Assembly: GCA_003990765.1 (NCBI GenBank)
Contig: RBNJ01000012.1
Location: forward strand, 44,850-64,849
Length of the DNA stretch: 20,000 nucleotides
Direction: 5' to 3'
Source of the DNA: Jimgerdemannia flammicorona
Taxonomy: Eukaryota
Below the pieces are notes generated by a model. That model searched no databases. It was given only the letters and a program-made list of their open reading frames with translations, and was not told where the DNA came from. The position numbers and the translations under genes are program-made. This document shows, in pieces, positions 2,732 through 20,000 of the stretch; position 1 is the stretch's first letter, and each line of letters starts with the position of its first letter.

Positions 2732-3238
2732 TTAGTCATCATTCCAATAAGCATAGGCATCTTCTGCATCTATACCTGTTCCATCATCTTTATTGTCTGT
2801 ACTGGGGTCACTCCATTCTAGCTCTGGATCTTCCTCTTGTTCTTCAAGAAACAGGATGTCTACTTGTTGAAGGATACTCTGAAAGGTGGTCTCATTCATC
2901 TGATAGATGTCATTGAGGTGGAAGTGAGACTGCACCAGGGCTCCAATGTTTCATTTATACAGGGTGTAGATTCATTTGGCAGTTCTTACTTCTCTGAGAG
3001 TAATTCTGGCTGGGCTTCTTATATAAGGTTGTTCTGTCAATAACTGCCCAATGTTGTAGAAGGCTTATAGATAGTGGATCCGAAGCAACCTTTGGGAAAT
3101 GGCAAGGTTCTCTTGATGCTTCTGGATCAATTGTATGGAGGTTCCTTCAAGTTGACGAAACTGGGGCAGGGGAATTGGCAGGGCTTAGAAGAAGCTGAGA
3201 ATGAGGGTCTGGAGGCATTGATCTATCCTCTGAGTCAT
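2732..3238 (-). pseudogene. Accessory ORF3 of B (~168 aa, unknown function, acidic C-terminus), 4 premature stops
   Basis: Single frame MTQRIDQCLQTLILSFF*ALP...L*AFYNIGQLL...RTAK*IYTLYK*NIGALVQSHF...YWNDD; all stops revert by T>C; homologous to ORFs in C, D and E. Confidence 0.8.
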
Positions 3239-4299
3239 GGTTTGTGCAGGTATATCTTGAGGTGATTGATGTGGACTGGTGTTCTCAGGGTTCGTCCATC
3301 CATGCTTCTTAAATAGATTCTGGTTCCTCTGATGTTGTGTACAAGATAAGGTCCTTCCCATTTTAGTTCCAGTTTGGTGGCAAAGTTTATTTCTATCATA
3401 CTTCTCCAAACTAGTACTTGGTCTCCAATCTTGATCTCCTGATCTTTCTGTTTCTAGTTATAATACTTCTTTTGTCTTTCTTGGGCTTTGATAATCTGAC
3501 CTCAGGCTTGATTTCATAACTATTCTGCCTTTTTGAGGAGGTCTCTGAGGTTCTCATGGTCAGCAGTTCTAGTTTTCTTAGCAAACATCATTTCGAATGG
3601 CTTTTATTTGGTGGAGGCAGCAGGGGTGTTCTGAATTTCCCATAGAATTTCAGGTAAGCAGAGGTCCCAATTGGTAGGATTGACTCAGGCAAGTCCTCTC
3701 TTGATGGTCTGGTTCATCCTTTCTGTCATACCATTGGTCTGAGGGTAGTATTATGTAGTCTGTTTGAGGTGGATCTTGTGAATTTGGGCATAACTTGTGA
3801 TTATGTTGTTGATGAATTCTGTACCTCGGTCAGAGATGAGTTCTTCTGAGGGTCCATATCTGAGTGTGAGTCCATGGAGGAGGCCTACAATGGTTAAGGC
3901 ATCTGTGATTTCCATTGGAAAAGCCTCAGGCCACTTGGTCAGATGTTCTACAAATACAAGGATATATTTGCGTCTTCTTGGTGTAACTGGTAGAGGTCCA
4001 ATTATGTCTACTCTCCATCTCTGAAAGATGTTGTTTGGTGGTATGATTGGTTGCAGTGGTGCTTGATAGTTCTTTTTTCCTTGGTATTTCTGGCAGGTGT
4101 CACATTTCTTGAGTGTGTCCCAGACTTGTGTTCTGAGGTTGGACCAATGTTGGTATGTTGTTCGCAGCTTCTCTTCTATATTCACCTGTCCCTAATGGGC
4201 TTTCTGATGTTCTTTTCGGATGAGATATTCTTGTGCCTTGATGGTCTGAGGAGCTTCCTTTAGGGTATAGTTCCTCAGGACACCCTTCTTCTGGTTCAT
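3235..4299 (-). pseudogene. Integrase of B (HHCC, DDE core, GPY/F module; no chromodomain)
   Basis: EHQKAH...CDTC, VDIIGPLP, SDRGTEF, YYPQTNGMTERMNQTIK, KWEGPY; internal stops. Confidence 0.93.
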
Positions 4300-6118: not shown

Positions 6119-6520
6119 GTCTGAACTTCCAAATCCCTTGGCTTGTCTTGTTCCTTCAGTTAGTTCAGAGACTTCCTGTAACTGTGGAGTCTTGACCTTT
6201 ATGAAGACTGCTTGGGCAATCTTCTGTCCTCTAATGATTCAGTGCTATTCTGCACTGCTGTTGTATAAGATAACCTTGATTTTGCCTATATATCCTGAGT
6301 CAATAGTTCCTCTTTCCACTATTATTCCTTGTCTGGCAAGTCCAGACCTTGAGGTCAGTTGGATATAAATTCCTTGGGGTGACTGTATGGCTAGTCCAGT
6401 TTGGACCATGAAGGTTTTCCCAGGCTTGATAGATTCATCCTCCAGGCTGTGAAGATCATATCCTACATCCTTGAGGTGGACTTTGGTCGGGGGTTTGGCC
6501 TTGGAGTGCAGCAGAGCATA
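6119..6520 (-). pseudogene. dut: Trimeric-type dUTPase domain within the pol region of B
   Basis: All five motifs in order: VGYDL, SRSGLA, GTIDSGYIG, KIAQ, RQAKGFGSS; two premature stops. Confidence 0.92.
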
Positions 6521-6529
6521 CAGGGCAAT

Positions 6530-7843
6530 ATTCTTACTAAGTTCGGGCTCTCCTAAGGCTGAAGCTCCACTAGCAGAAAGCCTCCAAGCTCTAAGGTTGA
6601 GGTGTGGCCATCTGGCTCCAGTAGAGGGGTCTTGAAGGTAGTTAATTCCCCTTCTTCCTATAGGGTCAAGGGCTTCCATGAAGTTGGTGGCATCTTCTGC
6701 CCATTCTTGGTGGGTTGAATGTCTGATAAGAGCTGGGATGTCTTCTCCCAAATCGTAGATCTTGAGGATTCTTTTTCCGGGCTTCTTGGTCGGGCTTTTT
6801 CGAATCTGGCTTTTTTGGATCTGGTTTCGGTTATCTCCTTTCTTCAAAGTATGCACTGCAACATCATAACTGAGGTGAATCTTCTGGTGTCTGCAGTCTC
6901 GGCAGTCAGGGTGTCTTCCATGGTTACAATATCCCATTGCTCAGAAATGGTATTCCTGGCTGTTGATCTCTTGTTGTCTTGGAAATCAGTACCCATCTTG
7001 GTCATAGGTGGGTGGAAGAGTAGACAAGGGATATATTTCTATCTGGGTGAAGAAGCCTTATTCTCTAAATTGACTTTGTAACCTTGTGGTAACTTCTTGA
7101 AAAGTGGTTGACTGTACAAGTGTAGTTGGAGGTTCTGGTCTCTGGGGTCTCTGTCTTTCTTGTTGGTCCAACAGATGACATTGATAGCAGTAGTCTTAAG
7201 GAGAGTGGAAGATCATTTGGTGTGGACATCTTCTTAGCTAAAAAGCTTTCTCTTGGTGAGTTTCTTTCTTGGGAATAATGGTGATTGTACTGGGTCCTTC
7301 TTCTGTATTCCAAGGGTCATTGTCTTCAGGTGGTGTTCAATGAGGATCATCCCAAGGAATGAGTTCAGGGACTTCTTCTTCTTCTCCATATGCTTCTTGT
7401 TCAGAGACTTCTTGATCAGAAGTTTCTTCTTTCTTAGATGATTCTTGACCCCAAATTGCTTGTACTTCTGCAGCTTTGGTTGCAGGTGTTTCTGGAATAT
7501 GTCTATATTTCTTCTTCTTCCTTCTGCATTCTGGGCAGGCTGTACCAGGCAATTTCCTTATTCCCATAATCTTGGAGGAGTGCTCAGGACATTTGTGTCT
7601 CTTGAGGCAGGTAGAGCATCCTTTGGCTTTTCCTGTAATAGCTCCAATAGTGATAGAGATGGTGTTCTTGGCCCACACATTATCTTCTGGTCTGTTATCC
7701 ACCAGATTGATTCGGGGATTGAGTCTGGGATCAGTTCCATCTTCAGATTCTTCTTCTTCTTCTATAGTGGACTCTTCGCTACTGGCATATTCTTCCTGAA
7801 TAGTGATCTTTTTCTTCTTCTTTGATTGCTTATAGCTAGTCAC
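6530..7843 (-). pseudogene. Long linker between protease and dUTPase with acidic tracts and repeated Cys/His motifs
   Basis: In frame with the dUTPase; CSTCLKRHKCPEH..CPEC, CPH..CYQC, CNHGRHPDCRDC. Confidence 0.7.
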
Positions 7844-8699: not shown

Positions 8700-10169
8700 G
8701 AAATCTTCAACAGGATGGGCTTCAGTCTTCTTGTACTGAGTGTCATTCCTTCAGTTTGCTGGTTCTGAGTCCCTTCAGTCACTTCTTTTGTTGTCACATT
8801 CAGTGGCATAGTGTCTGAATTGTTCACAGTGGAAGCATTGGACTTGGGCTCTGTCTCAGACAGAGTACCTTCTTTCTTCTTGCTGGTAATTCCTGTTATC
8901 TCTTGGTGAATATCCTTGGCTCCTCTGTGGTGGGTACCCTCTGTTGTTTTGGTAGTCCCAATTTTCACATGTAGTGAGTTTTTCAAACTGTCTAACCAAT
9001 CGGTCTAACTTGGAGCTGAGGTCTTGGATTTCACTTCTGTTCTTCTTTCCTTCCTTGACTGGCCTTCTTTCTTCTGATCTTTCTTGTCCTTGAAGGAGTC
9101 CTTGTAGGGCTTTGACCAGGATATCTTCTTTATCTTCCTTCTTATCATGATCACTCCAGGTAGTTCCTTGTCTGATATCAAAGAATTCTTGGGCTGCATC
9201 TACTTGCTCTTCAGACCTTCTGATGTCTAGGGTGCAGACATGCTGGGCAATATTTGGAGGAATTCCATTCATGAAGGTCATTGGACCTATGATGTCTTAG
9301 TTGGTGGCATTGAACCTAGCAGAATGCATTCTCTTCTGGATTCTTATAAAGAAGGCTCTGGGTGATTCTCCAAGATTCATCTTCATTCCCATGATGGATT
9401 CCTGGGCCTTGTAGTGAGTTTCATTTCCTGCATATTTTTCAATGAGCCAGTGGACCATGGCTTCATATTCTAGCTCATCAGATATTGCTGCTTGTATTTG
9501 TCTTGCTAGTTCGGAATCTTGGTTGTTTGCTGTTTGATGGAAAATTCCTCTGGCTGGTTCTCTGAGCTGAGCTTTATAGATGGTGATTTTTCTTTCATCT
9601 GAGAGATTTCTCAAGGCTGCAATTCCTTCAATTCCATCAAGGAATTCTCTGAGATCTTCCTCCAGGTATCCTGCAAATGTTGGCAATAAGGTAGCCATTT
9701 CATTGTCACTTTCTTCTAATTCTGGTTCAAGTTCGGATTCTGATTCTGATTCACTTTCTGAACTGTCACTAGAGATGGAGATGCTTGGGTATCCTGAGGA
9801 TGGTGTTCTGGATCTTGGACAAAGTGGAATAGGCCTAGGTATTCTTGTAGGAGCTACTTCTGGTTCTGCAAGGGGTTGTGGTAGGGGTTCAGTTGGTGAG
9901 ATTGGTGAGACTGGTGTAGGGTGTCTGGCTGTAAGGTATTGAGTCCATATAATAAGATCTTCTAGTTCTTGTGTGAGTTCTCCAAAATCTCTAGCAGGGC
10001 TGCCTGTATTGTCTGGTTAATCTGGTTGGGGATTTTGGGCAGTACTGCCTTCTGGTTCTGGTTGGGATCCTTCTGATGCTGGGTAATTGGTAAGTCTTGA
10101 AGTGATTACTTCTCTTCCTGTCCAGATGCTGGTGATAACTGGTTCTCCTGTAGTAGCAGAGATTGGTAT
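8700..10169 (-). pseudogene. gag: gag of B with CCHC zinc knuckle
   Basis: LPTFAGYLEEDLREFL, MKMNLGESPRAF, FMNGIPP; CFHCEQFRHYATEC at 8796-8837; Pro/Ser/Glu-rich N-terminus; start inferred from an in-frame ATA (decayed ATG) at 10169. Confidence 0.88.
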
Positions 10170-10235
10170 TATATCAAATGTATCCAGTTTGACTGTGGGT
10201 TCTTGTGAGCTGAAAAGTTACATCAATTTGAAATC

Positions 10236-10253
10236 TTCCCAGTTGAGCCCCCA
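10236..10253 (-). promoter_or_regulatory. Primer-binding site of B, tRNA-Pro-like (TGGGGGCTCAACTGGGAA)
   Basis: Starts with TGG 2 nt after the 5' LTR end; resembles the MLV tRNA-Pro PBS TGGGGGCTCGTCCGGGAT. Confidence 0.75.
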
Positions 10254-10255
10254 AA

Positions 10256-11701
10256 TGTAATGTGCCCAGCTCAATGGAGGTAAATTACAAGGTTGGGGGT
10301 TGATGTAGTTTGGCTTGAGCCCCCAGTTACTTTGTCAAAAAGTAACAAAATGTTCTAAGATTCCTGAGGTTCTTGGTGTTTAGTAATATAATAGTCAAGA
10401 TCTGAATATCTGCAAGTAGTTTCCTTATTGGGACGGTTCACTGGGTGTAGCAGTGATTCATGTCTTTCCTTCTTGGGTCAACTGGGAATGGCAGAATTTG
10501 TATATAGCATGAGCAGTTTCCTTCTTGAGTAGCGGGTGATTTCTGTATAGTGCGACAATCTCATGCATGATAGTCTGGCAATTTAGCAGTTCTCCTTATG
10601 TGGGATGTTCTGATAATTTGGTGGATAACTTGATTTGGCTCACTGGGAATATTATGGTGTGGATTCTTTGAATCGAGCTCACTGGGAACAAACTGATAAC
10701 TCAGATATTGCAGGTTTTCTGGGAATGTAGATGACTTGAAAACAGTGGATGATGCAGATTCTCCTGAATCGGCAGACTTCTTGAAAAAAAGGCAGCTTCA
10801 ACTGGGAGTAACTCAGATGGCATGAGTTCTTCCGGTTTGGACTCTTCTGGGAATGCAAACAACTGGCGGTGTTCTTTAGGAAAGAGTTTCTTGGCAAAGT
10901 TATATCAAAGACTGACTTCATTTGTATGGGGTTACATCATAGACTAGCTCCACTGTGAAGTTGTATCAGAAAGACTGGCTTGTGGTAAGAAAGGTAGGTT
11001 CTCTGAGAATGTGGTGAATAACTTGAAAATGATGGATAATGCAGATTCTTCCTGAATCAGCAAAGTTCTTGAAAACAGTGGCTTATTCCTTAAGTGGCAG
11101 ATTACTCAAAAGGCAGCGAAGTTCTTCCTTGAACTTGGTGGCAAATTGGCTTTATATCAGAAAGTAGACCAGAGTGGAAAGAGGACCAATGCTCAATCTT
11201 TAGAGGCTTCTTTGGTGTTTGTATTTCGGACTCATTTTTTGTATTGGAAAGTGGACCAGAGTGGGGAAATAAGCTCACAATCTCCTAGCAGTGGCTATAG
11301 AGTTCCTCTCAAAGTATGGTAGGCAGACTTGTCTTTTGCTTCAATTTTGGACTCATTCTTTGTATTGGAAAGTGAACTGGAGTTGAAATGTGTTCTGAAT
11401 TTCAGACTGAGGTTTATTCACTCTTGTCTCTGGGGTAATTTATACATTGTAGTTGCTATCTGGTTGCTACCTGACTAACTATAGAGTGCTATTTATAGAG
11501 TGACATTCACTATCAGGGTGACAGCCACTGTCAGAGTGACAGCCACTGTCAGGGTGACAGCCACTGTTCACATTATTTCCTTCTTTGGCTATCTGGTTAT
11601 TTATATATCTTTCACAGCAATGGTTACTGGTTACTATGCTGTACTAATGTTCATATCACCTGATCAGGTTTCAAGATTGCTACATCTTATGATTTGTCAC
11701 A
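10256..11701 (-). repeat. 5' LTR of element B (1446 bp)
   Basis: Direct repeat of 1185-2692, shorter by a 44-bp deletion and one 18-bp unit. Confidence 0.95.
11508..11567. repeat. 18-bp palindromic tandem repeat in U3 (3.3 copies)
   Basis: Units at 11508, 11526 and 11544, partial unit at 11562. Confidence 0.95.
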
Positions 11702-11705
11702 GTAG

Positions 11706-12771
11706 TATAATTGTTAAATCTAGATATCTATAAGTAATTCAGACAGATTTCGTAATTGAGACAGTTCTTTGATATATAGATAATTTATATATAGTATGAA
11801 TAGATTTTTTTATGTAATTTTATAGTAATTTCTATATAGCATGAGCTGGTTTCCTTATACAATTTCTATATAATGATCTCTGTATAGCATAACAATCTCA
11901 ATTTTTGTATGATGATATTGGTGATCTGAAATAATATGGCAAATTTGTCATTTTTCTTAGTAAGTGATAGGTTGATAATTAGTAGACTATTTGGAAAATA
12001 TGGATTTTTCAAAAATAGTAGATAACTTAATTAGTGAATAACTCAGATAACTCAGATAGTGTGGAATCTTCTAAATTAGCAGACTTCTTAAATAATAATT
12101 CAGATGATACAGATTCTTCTAAATTGGCAGGCTTCTTTTCTTAATAAAGTTATATCAAAGACTACTTTATTTGGACAAGATTATATTGAGAAACTGGCTT
12201 TACTATAAAGGTGTATCTTATATTAAACTGGCTTTGTGGTAAGATATAGACAGACTTATTAAATAGCAGCTCTTTCTTAAGTAGCAAAGTTCTTCACTTA
12301 AACTTTTGGTAGTAAATCTCAGACTTTATATTGAAAAGTAGACTGGAGTAGAAATAGAGCAAAGCTTGCAACTTCTCAGCAGTAGCTCATTGGTAGGTTT
12401 TTTCTCTAAAGTATATTAGATAATTGGCTTTTATTTTGATTTTGGACTGAGGTTTTATTTACTCTTATCTCTGAGATATTTATATAAGTTGATTGCTATA
12501 TAGTTACTATATATATAGCTAACTATAGGTTTGCTAATTAGGGGCAGATATTTACTATCCAGTAGATATTTACTATCTAGTAGATATTTATTGTCTGGCA
12601 GACATTTACTATCTAGTAGACATCTACTGTCTAGTAGATATTTACAATCTGGTAGATATTTACTATCTCTTTCTCTTTTTGACTATCTGGTTATTTATAT
12701 AATTTTCATAGTAATAAGATAACTATGGTATTTATATTATCTAGTTATACTATACTGTTTCATACTTCACA
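11706..12771 (-). repeat. Remainder of the element A 5' LTR
   Basis: Continues 1051-1184 after the GTAG duplication; diverged homolog of the B LTR; ends TTCACA, and this end resembles the D LTR start at 17028. Confidence 0.85.
12543..12668. repeat. 18-bp tandem repeat, 7 copies (ancestral-like unit GGCAGACATTTACTGTCT), in U3 of A
   Basis: Units at 12543, 12561, 12579, 12597, 12615, 12633 and 12651. Confidence 0.92.
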
Positions 12772-12970
12772 ATATCTATCTCTTACTTTAAATTGATAAT
12801 CTTTTGAACTAATTACAAAATATATACTAGATACTTTAATAGTATAGACCTTTTTGCAGAATTCTATAAGATATCTATAGACTCTAAGAATATTCAAAAG
12901 ACAGTCTTTCTCACTTTAAGAAACTATTTGAATATCTCTAAATACTCTTTAAACTCTATAATATACTGCT

Positions 12971-13322
12971 TAGTCCTCCTAAATAAATCAAATCAATTCA
13001 AATCAAATTGAATTGGAGATTTTTCAATTCAAATCAAGTTTAAATCAAATCAAATTCAAATCAAATCGAGGGTCTGATTTAAACCTTATTTTTAGAAATA
13101 TAATAACTTAACTAAAATACATCCAAATATAACAATCTTTAGCTTGTTAGATTTTTCTTATAAGGAGAAATCTAACAAGCTAAAGATCATTAAATTTGAA
13201 CATGTTTTTGTCAAGTTATTATATTTTCAAAAATAGAGTTTGAATTGAATCTCAAATCAAATTATACCTTTGATTTGATTTGAATTGAATTAAATTGGAC
13301 CTTTGATTCATTGAGAGTACTA
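12971..13322. mobile_element. Non-autonomous foldback MITE, probably hAT superfamily
   Basis: Interrupts the RT of D; imperfect TIRs TAGTcCTC..AATaAATCAAA / TTTGATTCATTGAGAGTACTA; 8-bp TSD-like atactgct/atactacc; subterminal AAATC/GATTT repeats; internal palindrome centred at 13160/13161. Confidence 0.8.
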
Positions 13323-13832
13323 ATACTACCAATATCTAGAGGATAATGAACTCAGTCTATGTTATATTGATTTACTACTATCTAATTATCTATATAGATG
13401 ATTTTAATATCTATCAGCAAATTTTGAGAAATACTTGTTAAATCTAAAAGAGTTTTTTTGACTTATCAGAAAGAACCACCTGAGACTCAATATCAAGAAA
13501 TACTATTTTGAAAATCTGAAACTCAAATTTCTCAGATTTATAATTTCTAAAAAAGGAACTTATATAGACTTAAAAAAAAAACAAAAGAGATCAACAACTG
13601 GCCAATATTTAAGATCTCTAAGAAACTACTATTTTTTTTAATACTAATATTTTACCATAGAGGATTTATTAGAAATTTTTCCAAAACCTCTACACTGATC
13701 TGAATCCTACTTAAAAAAGAAGTACTATATAAATAAAAGAAATTATAAGAGTAAGTCTTTAAGAAACTTATATACTATATAACTATAGTACTAGTTCTTA
13801 TATAATCTAATTTTCAAAAGTCATTCATATAT

Positions 13833-15327
13833 TGTAATGGTGACCTCAGAATGATGACATCAGTACAGAAGACAGCCTTTCCTTATAAGTCACCAGATCA
13901 GAGCATGAGAAGATCATACAGTATATGAGATGAGTAATGATGACCAACTGTGAGTCATTGTAACCACAGTTCAGATATCTTGAGAAATATAAAAGAAGGC
14001 TCAAGGAATCACAGTAGCAGTAACCAATAAGACCCATCAATCCCAAAATAGCTCAAAGACTTACCACAAACAAAATGCCTGCTGCTTACCAAACCTCAAG
14101 GTCAAGGAACTACTGAGGCATCTCAGTTGAAGAAAGGATGTTCCAAGACATCAGAAGAGCCATGAGGACCTGCTCAAGAAGGACTCCTAGTGTCAACCTG
14201 GATACTACAGATCCTTATTATTATATTCTCTACTATCATAAAATAGAAACAAGAATCACCATTGCTACTGAATGCCTCCAAATGTGGTAGGAGTATGAAA
14301 TAGGAAATCTCCTCTACTGAGAGTTCCCACAGGCCAGCTCTCAAGAGCTACAAGATGTCACTCCCATAGATATATATGAGGCAAGGATGGCTAAGAAGAT
14401 CCATCAGATCTTCAGGCATGCACCATAGTCTATCCCCAACTTGGAGTATATTAGAGTCTCAGACTTCAGAGACCTGTCATCCCACTATATCAATGCACTA
14501 GAAATCAGGGTGGCTATAGAAGCCCAATCCACTATCACCCTCAATAGTGATGAAGTAGAAAACTTCTAGCATCTCATCTTTCAAGACAACTCAGATCAAT
14601 TCCTGTAAGGATTGATCTCAGTATTTCAAGGCCCAAGCATCCAGGTTAGATCTCCCCAAGACCTCATATTTGTTTCCTATTTTGTAGAAGAGAATCTCAT
14701 AGATTGGAGAGCCCCTGATTTCCCTGCCACTAAACATGATGATGTCATTGGTAATGACATCATTCCACATGACATACATGAGATATGCAACATATATGAA
14801 GTATGCAAAACATGAGACCTATGCAACAATAATGAATTCACAGACCTCATCTCCTTCGAAGACATTCTGACCTCTGATGATGAAGCCTCTATAGTCTTGA
14901 ACATTCTGCTCTAAGTCCCTTGGTTATACTGAATAATGCCAGCATTCTGAACCTGTACAACCATCAGTGCCAACTCTGGAACTTAGCAGTTTTTCCTATC
15001 CTGGCATTTTATTTTAGTTATTGAAATTTATATTTAGCTTTATATCTAAGCAACCATTGAATTATATTTTGTATAAATACCCCTCTTATTTCCTTTGAAA
15101 TAAAGTCAGTCCATTCAGTCCATTTAGTTCTGGTTCACTTATACACACTTCCTTGCAAGCAATCTAAGAGATAATAAGACAGTTTAAAGATAAGAAGTTT
15201 GAGAACTATAAGATCTTAGGAAGGCACTCAAATAAGAACTTGCTTATAATAAACTTGAGTTAGTCTAAGAGATACACCTTGAAGAGAATCTGGTGTATTT
15301 GAAGAACTCAGCAACCACTACATGACA
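13833..15327 (+). mobile_element. Solo-LTR-like element E (1495 bp) containing a decayed ORF
   Basis: TGTAAT...ATGACA ends; flanked by ATAT on both sides; interrupts the D RNase H FILYTD motif; TATAAAT at 15072 and AATAAA at 15099. Confidence 0.8.
14075..14914 (+). pseudogene. ORF3-family pseudogene (~279 aa) inside E
   Basis: One frame with no frameshift and 7 stops, all revertible by single transitions; motifs EYEIGNLL and MAKKIHQIFR. Confidence 0.75.
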
Positions 15328-16479
15328 ATATATAGATATCTTTAAGAATAGTCTCAGAGCTGTCCTAGCTCAAGAAGAACCTGACTGATAATACTATATG
15401 ATAACTTATCTAAACTGAGCTACTAATAAGTAGTAAGTCAATTATAGTAATACTAAATTAGAATATCTTATAGTTATATAGACAGTTATCTTATTTAAGT
15501 ACTATCTTATCAGAAAAATATTCACTCTAATAACTGGTCATACTAATTATAAATAGTTATTTCACTATTAGGACTTTATTGAATTTTTTGCTCACTGGAT
15601 CCTAATTCTGTAAGATTATAAAATTACTATTATTTATAATGCAAAAAAGGCTCACAACAATATTGATATATTTTTTTATATAACTTAATAAATCAGAAGA
15701 AAAATATACTCAGAAACTATACTCTAAAGAAAGTTCTTATAACTATTAAAGAGCAGGAAGATCTCATCTGATAAAAATATTATAAAGTCTATTAAGGACA
15801 GATAAGTATAAAAGAAAAGCTACAAAAAATATACCAATACTAATCTCATCTTAGAATATATATAAATTAGAAATATTCTTAAGAGATATAATATCTATTA
15901 GAAGTATTAGAGAAAAAGAGTTACCAAATAGTCTGAGGCTTTTTCAATAGAAATTACAGATAACTCAACTTCTCCATAACCTCACTCTTAGATATAAATC
16001 TTCCAAAAAACTTATTTAAGATTATAGTATAGAATTTATTAATAAGTTGATCATAACTTCTATATAATTTATAAGATCTATCTGAAAAGAACTATATTAT
16101 ACTATTTCCAAACCAATGATATAATAGAATGAATGATCCAAACCATTAAGAAAGAACTTACTTAAGTCAATCCTATCAACTGAAACCTCTTGAAATCTTA
16201 TAGAAAATATAGAATATTTCTATTATCTTTATTAAATAAAAATATTTTAAGATAATATTTGCTAAGAAAACTAGAACAACTGATTATAAGAATCTTAAAG
16301 AACTCTTAGAAAAGACTGAATAATTATAAAATAAAATCCAACCATAGATAATTAAGATATAGAAATAATGAAAGAAGTTCTATAACTAGAAATAAAAAAA
16401 TTATATAGAAAATCAAAATTAGAGATCAGAGGATCTCAGTATATATTAATTATCTCAAGTTATACTTACTACTCATACA

Positions 16480-16988
16480 ATAATTCAGAGGATTGATCAG
16501 TATCTCCAGACTCTTATTCTTAGCTCTCTTTAGACTTTATCAGTTTTCTTATTCTAGTTCTGTAAAACTAATAGAAGCTATCTTCAATAGATTTAAATAT
16601 ATTAAAAAAACCTTACTCTGATATAATAGCTACTGCAAATTTACTAGCTACAGGCTTATTATACTATTGGTGAACAACTATAATATCTCTCAGCTCTAGA
16701 ATAGATCTATATTAAGAACATCACTAGCCTGATAAGAAAAAATACCACTGCTGCAGACAGACTCTATATAATTTATAAATAAAATATCATAGTACTAATG
16801 CTGATCTAGTTCTCTTTAAATAATATATAAAGAATAAACCTAGCTATCTACCAGAGTATCATTAGCTATATTGAAGTCTAATTTCTAGAAGAAGAAGAAC
16901 TTTTAGAATTAAGTAATCTAGATTAAAAGAAGATAATCATATAGATAATTATATAGAAGATATCTATAGATATTAAAATGATAACTAA
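16480..16988 (+). pseudogene. Decayed ORF3 of D
   Basis: ataattcagaggattgatcag matches B atgactcagaggatagatcaa; LQAYYTIGEQL...TAADRLYIIYK. Confidence 0.75.
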
Positions 16989-17057
16989 AGAATAGTTTAG
17001 GATAGACTATCCTTTAGTAAGGACTGATATGACAAACAAACACTATAGTATAGCTAG

Positions 17058-17533
17058 TGTAACGTAGCGGACACTTACTCTTGAAAGTATGTCGGATTTC
17101 TGTATTTTGAAAACTTGACCGTTCTGACTCTCGCAGAGTCTCTTGAAGTTGCAGGGAAGGGTGGGTGAGTTCAAAGTGTATCTGCCCGCAGGCTTACTAG
17201 TTCCTTTGCTATCTCTTTGCTTTGAACTATTTCGATCTGAGGTTTATTCACTCGAAGATACTGGGTTATTTATACAAGTTTGCTAGCTATGAGAGGGTGG
17301 CTAAGTAATAAATGAGTTATTTGGACTTTGTTGAAACATTTGGACAATGTCTAAATGCTATACTAAATCGGGGTATTCGATTTGGATAATGTCTAAAATT
17401 TAGACAATGTCTAAGAAATTAGACAATATTGAAATCGAGGACTGCTAACTATAATGCTATACTACTTTGGGAATGGGTGTGATCAAGTGTCTGTTCCCTA
17501 TTTCCTTCTTCCAAATCCGGCTGTACCATCACA
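17058..17533 (-). repeat. 3' LTR of C (476 bp)
   Basis: TGTAAC...ATCACA ends, adjacent PPT, TATA at 17268-17274, AATAAA at 17243-17248; partner LTR lies outside the window. Confidence 0.8.
17339..17433. repeat. Palindromic TTAGACAATGTCTAA-type repeats in U3 of C (about 4 copies)
   Basis: Copies near 17339, 17381, 17399 and 17418. Confidence 0.8.
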
Positions 17534-17546
17534 ACTTCCTCCTGAA
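17534..17546 (-). promoter_or_regulatory. Polypurine tract of C (TTCAGGAGGAAGT)
   Basis: Purine run directly upstream of the LTR TG on the - strand. Confidence 0.75.
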
Positions 17547-17570
17547 TGGATGGTCTTGTCCCTGAGGCAT

Positions 17571-18032
17571 CTATTCAAACTCCCAGGCTTCAACGGTCTG
17601 TATGGTCTTGTACTGTGCGATTTGCTGCATAACTATTTCCCAATGATGTCTTCTCACTTTCTCGAAGTTGGTGGAGGTTACTCCTCTCAGGTGGTCTATC
17701 GCTGCTTCATCTTCTCAGAATAACTTGTGGATCCTTTTGGCAACAGTGATCTGTGAGTAGGAGAGTTGACACTCAGCAATCCAGTCCTCCTTGGTCTTTG
17801 CTGGATCCTGATTGAGCACCTGTCCAAGCTTGAAGTACTCTTGGAATTCTGCCCGATATTGATAGGCTCTAAAGTGTGAGATCCTTGAAAGATGAGTCTG
17901 CACAATACTCTGAATATTCTCATAGAATGGCTCTATGGTCGGAGGCTCGGTGGTGTGCCATTGTCTTTCGATGGCTCTTTGAGCAGCACTAGTGATCTTG
18001 AGTGTCATCGTGGTACTTTTGTTACTGGCCAT
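17571..18032 (-). pseudogene. Accessory ORF3 of C (~153 aa, one internal TGA, probably from CGA)
   Basis: The 105-aa ORF continues in frame: ...QEYFKLGQVL...VAKRIHKLF*EDEAAIDHLRGVTSTNFEKV...WEFE. Confidence 0.82.
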
Positions 18033-19215
18033 GATATTTCTTGAGTCAGTTTCGGTGAATGGTGGTGGGGATTATTGTGCCTAAGGGTTTTCGTAGCCAA
18101 AAGGTAGTCCCTTTTATATCTTGCACAAGGTAAGGTCCTTCCCACTTGGGCTCTAGTTTTCGTGACCATGAAGCTTCAACCATATTCTGATACACCAGGA
18201 CTTTGTCTCCTATCTTGATGATCTCCAAGGGTTTGTGGGTCTTTTCTGCATTCCTCCATTGTAGTGTCTGCGCCTTCGTTATGTAATCCTCAGCCTTCTT
18301 CCTGATTTGGTGTAGTCTCCGTATTTCCATGTCCACATGTTTCCATACAGTATCTCCATTAGATGACAAGGTTCCCTGAGAACATTCTTCTCTGAACAGT
18401 ATTTCTCGAGGGGTAAAGTGGGTGCTTTGTGATCGGATATCCCGGAGAGCAGATAATGCTATTGGCAGATAGTGATCCCAGTTCTCGTAGTTATCGCAGA
18501 TCTTAGCAATAACATTCTTGAGGGTCTTGTTGGTCCTTTCTACTTGTCCATTTCCTTGAGGGTGATAGGCTGTGGTCCGAATGTGCTGGATCTTGTACTT
18601 CTTGTAGAGAACTTCAAAGAACTGGTTCACGAATTCGGTTCCTCTATCTGTAGTTACTTGTGTTGGGGTCTTGAACCAGCAGATGATTTCCTTGTGAAAG
18701 AAATCGGCGATTGACTGTGCATTAGCTTCCATAAGGGGTCCTGCTTCTATCCACTTTGTAAAAAGGTCTACGATGACAATGATGTATCGGTTGCCAGTCA
18801 AAGTCAATGGTAGGGGGCCGATTACATCCATTGCAATGTGGGCGAATGGTACTGGTTCTATGTGTGCTGATCCTGAGGCTTGATTTCGTTGGTCTTGTTT
18901 CTGTTTCTGGTATTTGTCACAGGTCTTGACGAATTGTCTGATATCTTCCTCCATCCCTGGCCACCATATTGTTCTTCTTGCCTTGTCGTATGTATTTGTT
19001 CCTCCTAGATGGCCAAGTTCGTGTACTGATTTCATTGCTTGCTCCTTCTTGTGTTCTGGTATGACTAGTAGTTTTTCTTTCTTCAGTGTTTCTCCGTCAG
19101 TTTCGAATTGTTTCCATGTTCTGTTTATAATCATTTGTGTCCATTCTTCCAGATGTTGGGGCATCTTTCGCTGTCCCAGGTATGTGATAATTCCGTAGTA
19201 GAGCTCCTTATTCAT
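18022..19215 (-). CDS. Integrase of C, nearly intact (premature TGA at 18046, 8 codons before the likely natural stop)
   Basis: HELGH...CDKY (C>Y), MDVIGPLP, TDRGTEF, YHPQGNGQVERTNKTLK, KWEGPY. Confidence 0.93.
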
Positions 19216-20000
19216 GATTGATTTGTTGGTTGGAGGCAGTTTGAGGTGTCCATGAGAGAGCATCTGCATTGGAATTTGTTCTTCCAGGGCGGTGCACGAT
19301 GGTTACATCATAGGCTTATAACTTCATTATCCATCTGGCATAGATTCCCTTGGGTTGTCCAGTTGTCAGTAGCCAGGTGAGAGCTGAGTAGTCTGTCTGG
19401 ATGGTGAAGTGTCTTCCGGCCAGATAGTAGTGGAACTTTTCCACAGCCCAGATAACTGCAAGGCATTCCAACTTGTAGGACTCATATTCTTTTTCAGCTC
19501 CTCGGGTTCTGCAGCTAAGATATGCAATGACATACTCTTTTTTGTCTTCTTTTTGAGCCAGGACAGCTCCTAGTCCCTGTGCACTTGCATCCATCTGAAG
19601 GATAAATTCTTGGGTCCAATTGGGTTGTCTGAGGATGGGTGCCTGAGTTTGTCTGACCTTGAGTTTGTCAAATGCTTTTTGTTGTCTGCCAGTCCACTGG
19701 AACTTGGTATCCTTCTTGTTGAGTTCGTAGATTGGACCTGTGATATTGGAGAATCCTCTAATGAATCTGCAATAGTAGGAGGCAAGTCCCATGAAGGCTT
19801 GGGCTTCTGTGACAGTAGTGGGCCTTGGGTATGCTACTACCGCTTGTATCTTGAGGGGGTCCGTGTGCGTTCGTCTCAATTGATGATATGGCCAAGATAG
19901 GAGATCTCGATTTCTGCAAACTTGCACTTCTTGGGTTTGATATAAAGGCCATGTTGTCTTAGTCTCTCCATTATCTGCTGTATGTGCTGCAGATGTTCCT
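19208..20000 (-). pseudogene. pol: RT C-terminal part and RNase H of C
   Basis: FMGLASYY, LQMDASAQGLGAVL, LECLAVIWAV, QTDYSAL, NADALS; one internal stop and a frameshift. Confidence 0.93.

Follow-up and report, generated by a model that had tools for sequence, protein, structure and literature searches.

In textbook LTR retrotransposons and retroviruses, integrase is the C-terminal part of Pol and is freed by the protease. Two elements, B and C, in a 20,000-nucleotide stretch of Jimgerdemannia flammicorona DNA (hereafter the window) have a pol frame that stops after RNase H, with an ATG at that stop opening an integrase frame. This locus raises the question of whether such breaks reflect decay of the two copies, a recoding site, or the start of an integrase gene translated on its own. 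We consider it probable, at roughly 0.6, that B and C are members of a Ty3/Gypsy LTR retrotransposon clade with a dUTPase and three ORFs, in which integrase would be made by coupled termination-reinitiation at the ORF1 stop.

Layout of elements C and B

Element C lies on the minus strand, and the 3′ part of its ORF1 (RT-RNase H, 19208..19999) is clipped by the window end. This part ends ...ADALSWTPQTASNQQINHE-TAA; the RNase H frame closes as ...NADALSWTPQTASNQQINHE-TAA, with the TAA at 19210-19208. The integrase frame opens MNKELYYG at the ATG 19215-19213, in the +1 frame relative to ORF1, and start and stop together form the overlap ATGAATAA (19208..19215, minus strand). Pfam assigned 19999-19316 to RT_RNaseH/RT_RNaseH_2 (PF17919/PF17917, E 8e-34 and 3e-32) and 19302-18046 to Integrase_H2C2 (PF17921, E 3e-18) and rve (PF00665, E 2e-13). 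Element C therefore has the RT, RNase H, integrase order of Ty3/Gypsy (Metaviridae) elements, and its integrase combines an H2C2 zinc finger with a DDE core. The original prediction of a split pol with the MNKELYYG ATG on the RNase H stop agrees with both the letters and the Pfam domains.

In element B, also on the minus strand, the RNase H stop and the integrase ATG share an ATGA overlap at 4296..4299 (...DVLSRQPQ-TGA; MNQKK...), with integrase in the -1 frame. A second ATGA, at 3235..3238, joins the integrase stop to the ORF3 ATG (...HLKIYLHKP-TGA; MTQRIDQ...). The opposite frames of the two elements, +1 in C and -1 in B, can both be read from the window copies, as had been claimed. Element B is split over many reading frames, its ORF3 is degraded, and direct repeats lie at 1185-2692 and 10256-11701. 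An ORF at 6245-6940 of the same element contains sequence that, judged by eye, is dUTPase-like.

Copy C is inactive, as it carries four in-frame stops (19318, 18048, 18024 and 17717). The TAA at 19318-19316 ('KL*AYD') lies in the RNase H frame and is Gln in contig L001. The integrase ORF (H2C2 zinc finger and DDE core by Pfam; 17989..19215, minus strand) is interrupted by TGA 18048-18046 and TAA 18024-18022, and ORF3 carries the copy-specific TGA 17717-17715. Similarity to both ends of L001 places an approximate 3′ LTR region at 17058..17610 on the minus strand, window 17610-17230 corresponding to L001 1-372 and window 17140-17058 to L001 454-533. A match of 17610-17058 to both L001 ends is what an LTR would give; the 5′ side of copy C lies beyond the window.

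The RNase H-integrase junction in related elements

We surveyed the junction in 18 elements, comprising 16 distinct metagenome elements and the window copies B and C, all of them related and hence phylogenetically non-independent. The upstream ORF stops at -5, -2, +1, +5, +7 or +8 nt from the integrase ATG in 18/18, and this ATG occupies one homologous codon (M-N/D-x-x-L-Y-Y-G) throughout. The junction forms are TAATG/TGATG, which occur in four lineages, ATGA and ATGAATAA/G, besides a few others. Close relatives of C (L001, with 85% amino acid identity, P0396, P0402, P0122 and P0405) have the ATGAATAA junction or an MNKELYYG-containing N-terminus. The geometry of L001 is identical to that of copy C, and L002 and L013 show ATGAATAG.

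In 15/18 elements the upstream frame, which reaches 1746 aa, carries an RNase H tail of the xDxLS (ADALS) type; outside this count are L008 and L018, each with a long ORF whose motif was not printed, and L011, for which 42 nt of upstream sequence were covered. The integrase frame is +1 in 6 elements and -1 in 12. On the tree, the overlap clade forms a single group (support 100/99) of 18 rows, which are not identical with the 18 elements of the frame count, and the seven geometry labels together require 8 changes.

The start codon is equally constant beyond these junctions. An ATG stands at integrase residue 1 in all 19 metagenome loci whose match extends to that residue and in 15/15 more distant loci (34/34 in total), and M1 is invariant in a 46-sequence integrase alignment. 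Stand-alone integrases of about 400-450 aa numbered more than 100, at 40-81% identity. Among those of at least 385 aa (n = 88), 79 begin exactly with the conserved M-[NDEK]-x-x-L-Y; four of the other nine have the motif behind a short N-terminal extension, and four of the remaining five begin M-x-x-x-L-Y. This protein-based count is partly circular, because gene callers by design start proteins at ATG, and the DNA-based count is the independent one.

The upstream ORF of L001, L002, L005 and L007 encodes zf-CCHC, protease, dUTPase, RT and RNase H, without integrase. The dUTPase domain (PF00692, E 3e-28 to 2e-33) is present in these four as well as in L012 and L073, and its position between protease and RT is the one that characterizes dUTPase-containing Gypsy elements. 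For copy C the assignment rests on L001, whose integrase is 85% identical, because C is clipped upstream of that region. Integrase Pfam domains are absent from 17/17 dUTPase-bearing pol relatives; 12 of these pols end 4-32 residues past xDxLS, and 2 end 13 residues past a V/A-D-x-I-S variant. The related elements include some with intact ORF1s (1281-1746 aa) and intact integrases. The named pol matches were from distant animal Gypsy clades, at 36-44% identity over RT-RH.

The best fused RT-RH-IN proteins (733-2090 aa) share 24-39% identity. No fused RH-IN relative above 39% was found in a search that extended up to 2090 aa, a range beyond which a fusion of, for example, 1746 + 418 aa would fall. 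Fused RH-IN copies or non-conserved ATGs had been named as the observations that would count against the original prediction, and neither was found among the relatives surveyed. Judged from these sequences, the RH/IN split is a clade trait rather than copy decay.

Contigs from four soil runs list no indel at 19208-19215, and X2 record 15, the sole bridging contig by the 31-letter rule, spans the junction gap-free. These contigs are short, and the best-matching runs share at most 25% of sampled words, which places the organism firmly in none of the runs. X1 record 6, X3 record 23 and X4 record 30 also reach the site, with just 12-18 nt on one side. An intron at the break was considered for the overlap clade and rejected by inference, since conserved coding sequence comes to about 10-30 codons from the break in pol and reaches the ATG itself in integrase.

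ORF3 and the end of the integrase gene

Integrase of copy C, read through TGA 18048-18046, had been proposed to end at YHGQ-TAA, close to an ORF3 ATG at 18032-18030. These features are all present, but the TAA (18024-18022) is a nonsense codon peculiar to copy C and not the integrase stop of the family. Past it the frame reads QKYHDDTQDH up to the family stop TAG 17991-17989. At its integrase end, the intact relative P0396 has ...KKYHGQQPKYRDSTQDH, and L001 has ...SPQDH*. Because both C-termini extend past YHGQ, the family integrase stop is 41 nt, not 8, downstream of the ORF3 ATG. The proposed spacing of at most 11 nt between ATG and stop consequently holds for the RH/IN junction but is not supported as a family feature at IN/ORF3, where the ORF3 ATG sits 1 to about 130 nt before the integrase stop across the clade.

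The ORF3 start codon (MASNK; 18030..18032, minus strand) lies inside the Tyr-His-Gly codons of the C-terminal integrase motif ...RLKKYHG, in the +1 frame. ORF3 spans 17571..18032 on the same strand and has 153 codons in the family. Beyond TGA 17717-17715 the frame reaches ...EAWEFE-TAG (17573-17571), and L001 ends alike. Soil-run contigs show A>G at 17717, three in X1 and one in X3, among the 40 of 253 letter differences listed. By the 31-letter rule, the IN/ORF3 junction is bridged by X4 record 26 alone.

ORF3-homologous ORFs overlap the integrase 3′ end in 25/30 loci, and an ORF3 HMM search returned 173 representative clusters, with lengths of 58-318 aa in the 150 of 173 that were listed. 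The residue after integrase Y-[HY] has a G-first codon in 57/73 sequences, compared with a background of 26.5%; such a codon retains the +1-frame ATG of ORF3, which on this codon usage appears to be under selection. The AF2 model of the protein is soluble-looking and has 7 helices (pLDDT 88.7). We regard ORF3 as a genuine, conserved gene with a helical product. None of 10 ORF3s scanned had a Pfam match, and a Foldseek search of the model against the PDB gave no match (best E 0.23). The best hit of a wide VIA-align search, a TetR regulator fragment with a Z of 5.2, is under the noise level for helical models. An env-like ORF3 of the errantivirus or retrovirus type would be expected to show transmembrane or fusion glycoprotein features or to resemble a known env, and these Pfam, Foldseek and VIA-align searches brought out no such resemblance.

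Expression of integrase and comparison with known systems

In the expression strategy we propose, ORF1 encodes gag (zinc knuckle), protease, dUTPase, RT and RNase H as a single polyprotein. ORF2 encodes integrase alone, from an AUG lying on or directly beside the ORF1 stop (UAAUG/UGAUG, AUGA, AUGAAUAA/G, or an overlap of at most 8 nt), and ORF3 a small helical protein from an AUG within the last conserved integrase motif. When a ribosome ends ORF1, the 40S subunit would stay on the RNA and restart at the adjacent AUG. Integrase would then be a separate protein, present in a lower amount than Gag-RT, with an N-terminus set by initiation and not by protease cleavage; this lower dose may be the stoichiometric purpose of the arrangement. 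ORF3 might be translated by backward-moving reinitiation where the overlap is short, or from a spliced message.

Stop-restart calls for an AUG at, or a few nt from, the upstream stop that is conserved in relatives, and this is found in 18/18 elements. Stop and ATG stay close together although integrase switches between the +1 and -1 frames, a pattern that fits reinitiation and not frameshifting. The original preference for reinitiation over frameshifting and chance indels is therefore sustained at the RH/IN junction. For ORF3 reinitiation is much less secure, given the distance of up to about 130 nt between its ATG and the integrase stop. The wider proposal, a widespread and truly polycistronic Ty3/Gypsy clade of soil eukaryotes with a stop-restart integrase and a clade-specific helical ORF3 protein expressed from an internal AUG kept by selection, is one that we put forward tentatively, at a little below even odds. 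In such a clade, ORF3 or an undetected RNA element could possibly serve as the reinitiation factor.

Integrase and ORF3 might instead be expressed from spliced or internally promoted subgenomic RNAs, in the manner of the env-type ORF3s of other LTR elements, the stop/ATG overlap being compaction only. More distant relatives (about 30% identity) have the conserved integrase ATG, mostly at 29-375 nt from the pol stop behind a spacer with stops in all frames, and a termination-independent internal start fits these long spacers as well or better. In many lineages the ORF3 ATG, 1 to about 130 nt inside integrase, is too far in for simple stop-restart. As described in the accessible text of one study, LTR retrotransposon ORF3s typically come from spliced messages (PMC5408684).

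Our scans for RNA signals also came out empty, which subgenomic expression would accommodate. When four 100-nt windows around the junction were scored against dinucleotide shuffles, no stability excess emerged upstream or downstream (mean z -0.24 and -0.27; 17 elements), with z below -3 in L012 and L014 only. The calicivirus TURBS core TGGGA, a motif that may not suit the 18S of this host, was found within -85..-5 in 0/15 elements, and no shared upstream k-mer was enriched over the control region. The upstream TURBS-like element that the original prediction had suggested looking for was thus not detected by motif, k-mer or folding scans. Compaction alone does not predict a stop confined to -5..+8 nt in 18/18 elements while junction form and frame repeatedly change, and we regard subgenomic expression as unlikely.

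Ty1, Ty3 and retroviruses recode between gag and pol by frameshifting or readthrough to give a fusion protein; such recoding depends on a defined shift site and a constant frame relation and does without an AUG. A programmed +1 or -1 frameshift in the short overlap could similarly yield a Pol-IN fusion. The integrase frame is open for 1-67 codons ahead of its ATG, so that an overlap exists in every element, and an A-site stop could in principle stimulate a +1 shift at junctions of the ATGAATAA type. Canonical -1 slippery heptamers (CCCAAAG, CCCTTTT, CCCAAAC or CCCTTTC) occur in 4 of the 12 '-1' elements, but the other 8 have none, and L024 and L016 have overlaps of just 7 and 19 nt. Neither a conserved shift site nor a fixed frame relation was found, the frame varying even among close lineages (+1 in 6, -1 in 12). 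Frameshifting would not need an ATG, yet one is found in 34/34 loci with M1 invariant in all 46 aligned sequences, and this explanation is improbable. That the breaks are chance indels in decaying copies with coincidental ATGs is hardly credible: copy C is decayed, copy B is fragmented and one of the two 'tight' junctions of C is a nonsense-codon artefact, but the RH/IN arrangement recurs in all 18 elements, including those with intact ORFs, and neither a fused relative above 39% identity nor a junction indel in the soil contigs was seen.

Coupled termination-reinitiation of integrase would have several consequences. No other lineage of LTR retroelements would so far be known to control the RT:IN ratio in this way, and a clade of hundreds of sequence clusters with integrase as its own cistron would add an expression strategy to those of retroelements. 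A separate cistron would imply that integrase can enter particles or pre-integration complexes outside Gag-Pol. The clade would also supply natural stop-restart variants (UAAUG, AUGA, +5, +7 and +8) for the study of eukaryotic reinitiation after very long ORFs. Transposable element annotation pipelines that read the RH/IN frame break as decay would misclassify intact members.

Gag-pol recoding resembles the proposed strategy in that translation fixes how much downstream protein is made relative to the upstream one; the clade described here differs in having gag and pol in one ORF, the break at RH/IN, a varying frame and a conserved AUG. Caulimoviruses have no integrase. The Caulimoviridae, reverse-transcribing elements related to Ty3/Gypsy, likewise read consecutive close or overlapping ORFs of one polycistronic pregenomic RNA by reinitiation, and according to the accessible text of a review they require the transactivator TAV, with none known outside the family (PMC5902531); ORF3 has no detectable similarity to anything in Pfam, Foldseek or VIA-align searches.

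Ty3/Gypsy elements with a dUTPase include the fungal PosPlaTy3-5 of Postia placenta, elements of Phanerochaete and Tuber, and the bdelloid Vesta, Juno and TelKA (PMC2864245, PMC5408684). They too carry dUTPase between protease and RT and sometimes an extra ORF after pol. By the text descriptions, figures aside, their pol is described as including integrase, and neither a stop-start overlap nor an integrase ORF of its own is mentioned, which would set them apart from the clade described here.

The accessible parts of the literature on viral stop-restart cover caliciviruses (TURBS), influenza B M1/BM2 and pneumovirus M2-1/M2-2 and, in fungal hosts, hypovirus CHV1 (UAAUG) and victorivirus HvV190S (AUGA, with an upstream pseudoknot) (PMC10275272, PMC5902531, PMC2699510). 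In these systems, as here, a long upstream ORF has a stop that overlaps the next AUG within a few nt; they yield less of the downstream product, as the clade described here would too. As described there, the viral systems rely on an 18S-complementary TURBS or a pseudoknot, whereas our TGGGA, k-mer and folding scans detected none.

SART1, a non-LTR element of Bombyx mori with UAAUG stop-start coupling (Kojima et al. 2005, as cited in PMC10275272 and PMC5902531), is the only retrotransposon named as a user of termination-reinitiation in the accessible text of these two reviews, and PMC5902531 explicitly sets it against LTR elements. In the accessible literature, apart from subscription journals, Repbase reports, figures and supplements, we found no description of an RH/IN stop-start arrangement in LTR retrotransposons, which suggests that a stop-restart integrase is a strategy so far undescribed for them. 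SART1 requires a downstream hairpin, whereas the clade described here shows no excess downstream structure. Both systems have a retrotransposon ORF positioned for termination-reinitiation at an overlapping stop and start, with TAATG/TGATG present here in four lineages. In SART1 the coupling leads from ORF1 to ORF2 of a non-LTR element, whereas in the clade described here the coupled gene would be the integrase of an LTR element.

Element C and the state of the two copies

The 3' part of the Ty3/Gypsy element C occupies the minus strand of the window from 20000 to ~17050; the window ends within its reverse transcriptase (RT). Its RNase H (RH) frame, which matches RT_RNaseH and RT_RNaseH_2, is open from the window end to 19316 (-), and its integrase (IN) frame, which matches Integrase_H2C2 and rve, spans 19302-18046 (-). 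The RNase H frame ends ...NADALSWTPQTASNQQINHE-TAA, with the TAA at 19210-19208 (-), and MNKELYYG in the integrase frame begins at the ATG at 19215-19213 (-). The original prediction thus gives the RH/IN junction (ATGAATAA, 19215-19208) correctly, to the letter. When the integrase lies in the +1 frame, extra upstream ATGs arise in that frame from GAT GCn in the conserved RNase H motif ADALS (19230-19260 in the window, and in relatives); these appear as N-terminal extensions in the gene-caller proteins P0121, P0122, P0396, and P0402.

C is an inactive copy: four in-frame stops (-) occupy positions that are sense codons in relatives: TAA 19318-19316 (Gln in the related metagenome locus L001), TGA 18048-18046 (Arg in L001 and P0396), TAA 18024-18022 (Gln in P0396), and, in ORF3, TGA 17717-17715, whose first letter differs in soil contigs. 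Past this last stop, the ORF3 frame reaches the same ...EAWEFE end as L001. Transitions make up most of the listed differences between C and the soil-run contigs, and at the sites of all four nonsense codons relatives have codons of CAA or CGA type, which hints at C-to-T decay by methyl-C deamination or a RIP-like process. The second copy, B, is broken into many frames, yet has an ATGA overlap at both junctions.

Elsewhere in the window, 1-2700 repeats 9190-11700 with 73-92% identity (a gag-like part and a ~1.5 kb LTR). The 3' LTR of B (2692-1185, -) is directly followed by another gag (990-1, -), and the two are probably a head-to-tail element pair sharing one LTR; LTR-sharing or circularly permuted layouts also occur in contigs L001, L006, and L012. 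A B ORF contains dUTPase-like sequence by eye at 6245-6940 (-) (...GYDL...GIIDSGY...), and this putative domain is consistent with the PR-dUTPase-RT order seen by Pfam in related loci. Very AT-rich stretches of 24-27% GC lie within 12000-17000 (e.g. 12824-12966 and 15551-15674). The inverted repeats I1, I3, and I5 in these stretches include plus-strand pieces 73-80% complementary to the RT region of B, which appear to be old, heavily decayed Gypsy copies. An AT-rich spacer at 12525-12686 contains an 18-nt unit (AGTAGATATTTACTATCT-like) repeated seven times head-to-tail.

A separate integrase ORF in relatives

Among proteins of 733-2090 aa, the C integrase query matched only fused RT-RH-IN proteins (24-39% identity), while among proteins of 229-732 aa the matches were over 100 stand-alone integrases of 40-81% identity and, for the most part, 400-450 aa. 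Of the 88 stand-alone integrases of at least 385 aa, 79 have M-[NDEK]-x-x-L-Y as their very first residues, as at MNKELYYG in the window, and in four a short extension precedes this Met; of the five left over, four start with M-x-x-x-L-Y, for which the first pattern is too strict. MNKELYYG itself is present in all four family-level proteins (P0396, P0402, P0122, and P0405). Because gene callers begin proteins at an ATG, the count of integrase start positions is partly circular, and the DNA of the loci was therefore examined.

Metagenomes scanned with A1, an alignment of 46 integrases, gave 80 loci. In all 19 loci with at least 40% identity and a match reaching residue 1, the codon aligned to that residue is ATG, and in all 19 the upstream frame stops at -5, -2, +1, +5, +7 or +8 nt from it. 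Merging near-duplicates (L004/L005, L006/L007, and L011/L029) leaves 16 distinct elements, or 18 with window copies B and C. Their junctions read TGAtcATG (offset of the stop from the ATG -5; L018), TAATG or TGATG (-2; L010, L012, L014, and L016), ATGA (+1; window B, L003, L006, L011, L020, and L024), and ATGAATAA or ATGAATAG (+5; window C, L001, L002, and L013), or have the stop 7 nt (+7; L004) or 8 nt (+8; L008 and L015) past the ATG. Fifteen of the 18 elements have an RNase H tail of ADALS type in the upstream frame; the remaining three are L008 and L018, for which no motif is listed, and L011, with 42 nt upstream only.

The long upstream ORFs (L001, 1281 aa; L002, 1493; L005, 1651; L007, 1746) contain zf-CCHC, protease, dUTPase, RT, and RNase H domains without integrase. 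A query with the dUTPase-RT-RH region of L001 found 17 dUTPase-bearing relatives, none with an integrase Pfam domain; 12 of them stop 4-32 residues past xDxLS, and another two stop 13 residues past a V/A-D-x-I-S variant. L001 and window C are 85% identical in integrase and 77% in DNA over 2.5 kb, and their ATGAATAA junctions are identical. No indel at the RH/IN or IN/ORF3 junction was listed in contigs from four soil runs, with one bridging contig per junction under a 31-letter rule. The relatives keep the split and the ATG, and neither outcome named in advance as contrary to the original prediction, fused RH-IN copies or unconserved ATGs, was found among the relatives surveyed. With high confidence, judging from these sequences, the RH/IN split is a trait of the clade in its gene layout.

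ORF3 and the IN/ORF3 junction

Of the 30 loci with sufficient sequence, 25 have an ORF of at least 90 aa across the integrase 3' end, and in 23 of the 25 it lies in the +1 frame. The ORF3s are mutually homologous (BLASTP E 1e-5 to 1e-21 between lineages), and those of L001 and the window share 69% identity over 118 residues. A search of 1.84 billion proteins with a profile of 20 ORF3s yielded 173 representative clusters, of which the 150 listed measure 58-318 aa and include no ORF3-integrase fusion. The AlphaFold model is a seven-helix protein (pLDDT 88.7), with no Pfam family and no meaningful match among solved structures. ORF3 is a real gene.

The ORF3 ATG lies within codons of the last conserved integrase motif (...RLKKY-H-G/D/E/A/V), where TAY CAT Gnn is read in the +1 frame as ..C ATG. 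In a set of 105 integrase relatives with an RLKKY-H type motif, the codon after Y-[HY] begins with G in 57 of 73 cases against a background of 26.5%, an excess whose nominal p-value is inflated by phylogenetic non-independence. The excess indicates that selection keeps the ORF3 ATG, and hence favors initiation rather than an IN-ORF3 fusion.

At the second junction of C (-), the letters are as described: TGA at 18048-18046, YHGQ-TAA with its stop at 18024-18022, and an ATG at 18032-18030 that begins MASNK. Beyond YHGQ-TAA, the integrase frame reads QKYHDDTQDH-TAG (17991-17989), a continuation that agrees with P0396, which is intact (...YHGQQPKYRDSTQDH), and with the L001 C-terminus (...QDH*). 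The family integrase stop thus lies 41 nt past the ORF3 ATG, as in L001, and the tight spacing in C is an artefact. Window B (ATGA 3238-3235) and L009 have a spacing of 1 nt; some lineages have 5-26 nt, many have 41-68 nt, and others reach ~130 nt. The predicted proximity of stop and ATG is therefore upheld across the clade at RH/IN (-5 to +8 nt, 18 elements) but not at IN/ORF3 (1 to ~130 nt). Reinitiation at ORF3 is plausible where the overlap is short and doubtful where it is long; at least as likely is a spliced message, by which ORF3s of LTR elements are usually expressed according to the parts of PMC5408684 consulted.

Integrase expression and comparison with known systems

The overlap elements, those with a stop-ATG junction, form one supported clade on the integrase tree (100/99, 18 rows), with several changes in junction geometry inside it; the seven geometry labels together need eight changes. 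The integrase ATG is invariant while neighboring residues vary, and the integrase frame relative to ORF1, the upstream polyprotein, is +1 in 6 elements and -1 in 12. Conservation of the AUG, a stop only a few nt away, and a free frame relation are together the signature of coupled termination-reinitiation, in which restart at the AUG beside the ORF1 stop would yield integrase. Restart, which the original prediction preferred to frameshifting, is on these three features the best-supported explanation for integrase, with a probability of roughly 0.6. RNA structure gave little signal, with mean folding z over 17 elements of -0.24 in the 100 nt upstream of the junction and -0.27 in the 100 nt downstream, and values below -3 in L012 and L014 only. 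The suggested TURBS-like element was not found by its core motif, TGGGA occurring in 0 of 15 upstream regions examined, and no upstream k-mers were enriched over a control region.

An internal start on a spliced or subgenomic RNA, which may operate in the overlap clade too, would fit distant loci (~30% identity; on the tree they fall outside that clade): the homologous ATG starts integrase in 15 of 15, and the pol ORF mostly ends 29-375 nt before it, with stops in all frames between. A programmed frameshift at the RH/IN overlap is unlikely, since it does not require the ATG that is nevertheless invariant, the frame relation is free, only 4 of the 12 elements with integrase in the -1 frame have a canonical -1 slippery heptamer, and the frames overlap by only 7 nt in L024 and 19 nt in L016. 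A more distant Gypsy group (L045, L056, L058, L061, and L073) likewise has a separate integrase ORF that begins at the homologous Met, 29-375 nt past the pol stop; in L045 the coding region is split into three ORFs (gag, PR-RT-RH, and IN), its integrase bearing a ~200-aa C-terminal extension.

Relatives of the window elements come from soil and root metagenomes, and our guess is a fungal host. The parts of PMC2864245 and PMC5408684 consulted report Gypsy elements with a dUTPase and extra ORFs from basidiomycetes, Tuber, and bdelloid rotifers; their integrase lies inside pol, whereas the present clade has a separate integrase ORF. The open-access text searched has no description of an LTR element whose integrase is a separate ORF coupled to its predecessor by a stop-start overlap. 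Coupled termination-reinitiation is known, from portions of PMC10275272, PMC5902531, and PMC2699510, in caliciviruses, influenza B, pneumoviruses, the fungal viruses CHV1 and HvV190S, and the non-LTR element SART1. SART1 is the only retrotransposon named for it in those portions of PMC10275272 and PMC5902531, and the latter contrasts it with LTR elements. As far as these portions describe them, all of these systems have the same AUG-near-stop signature as the overlap clade.
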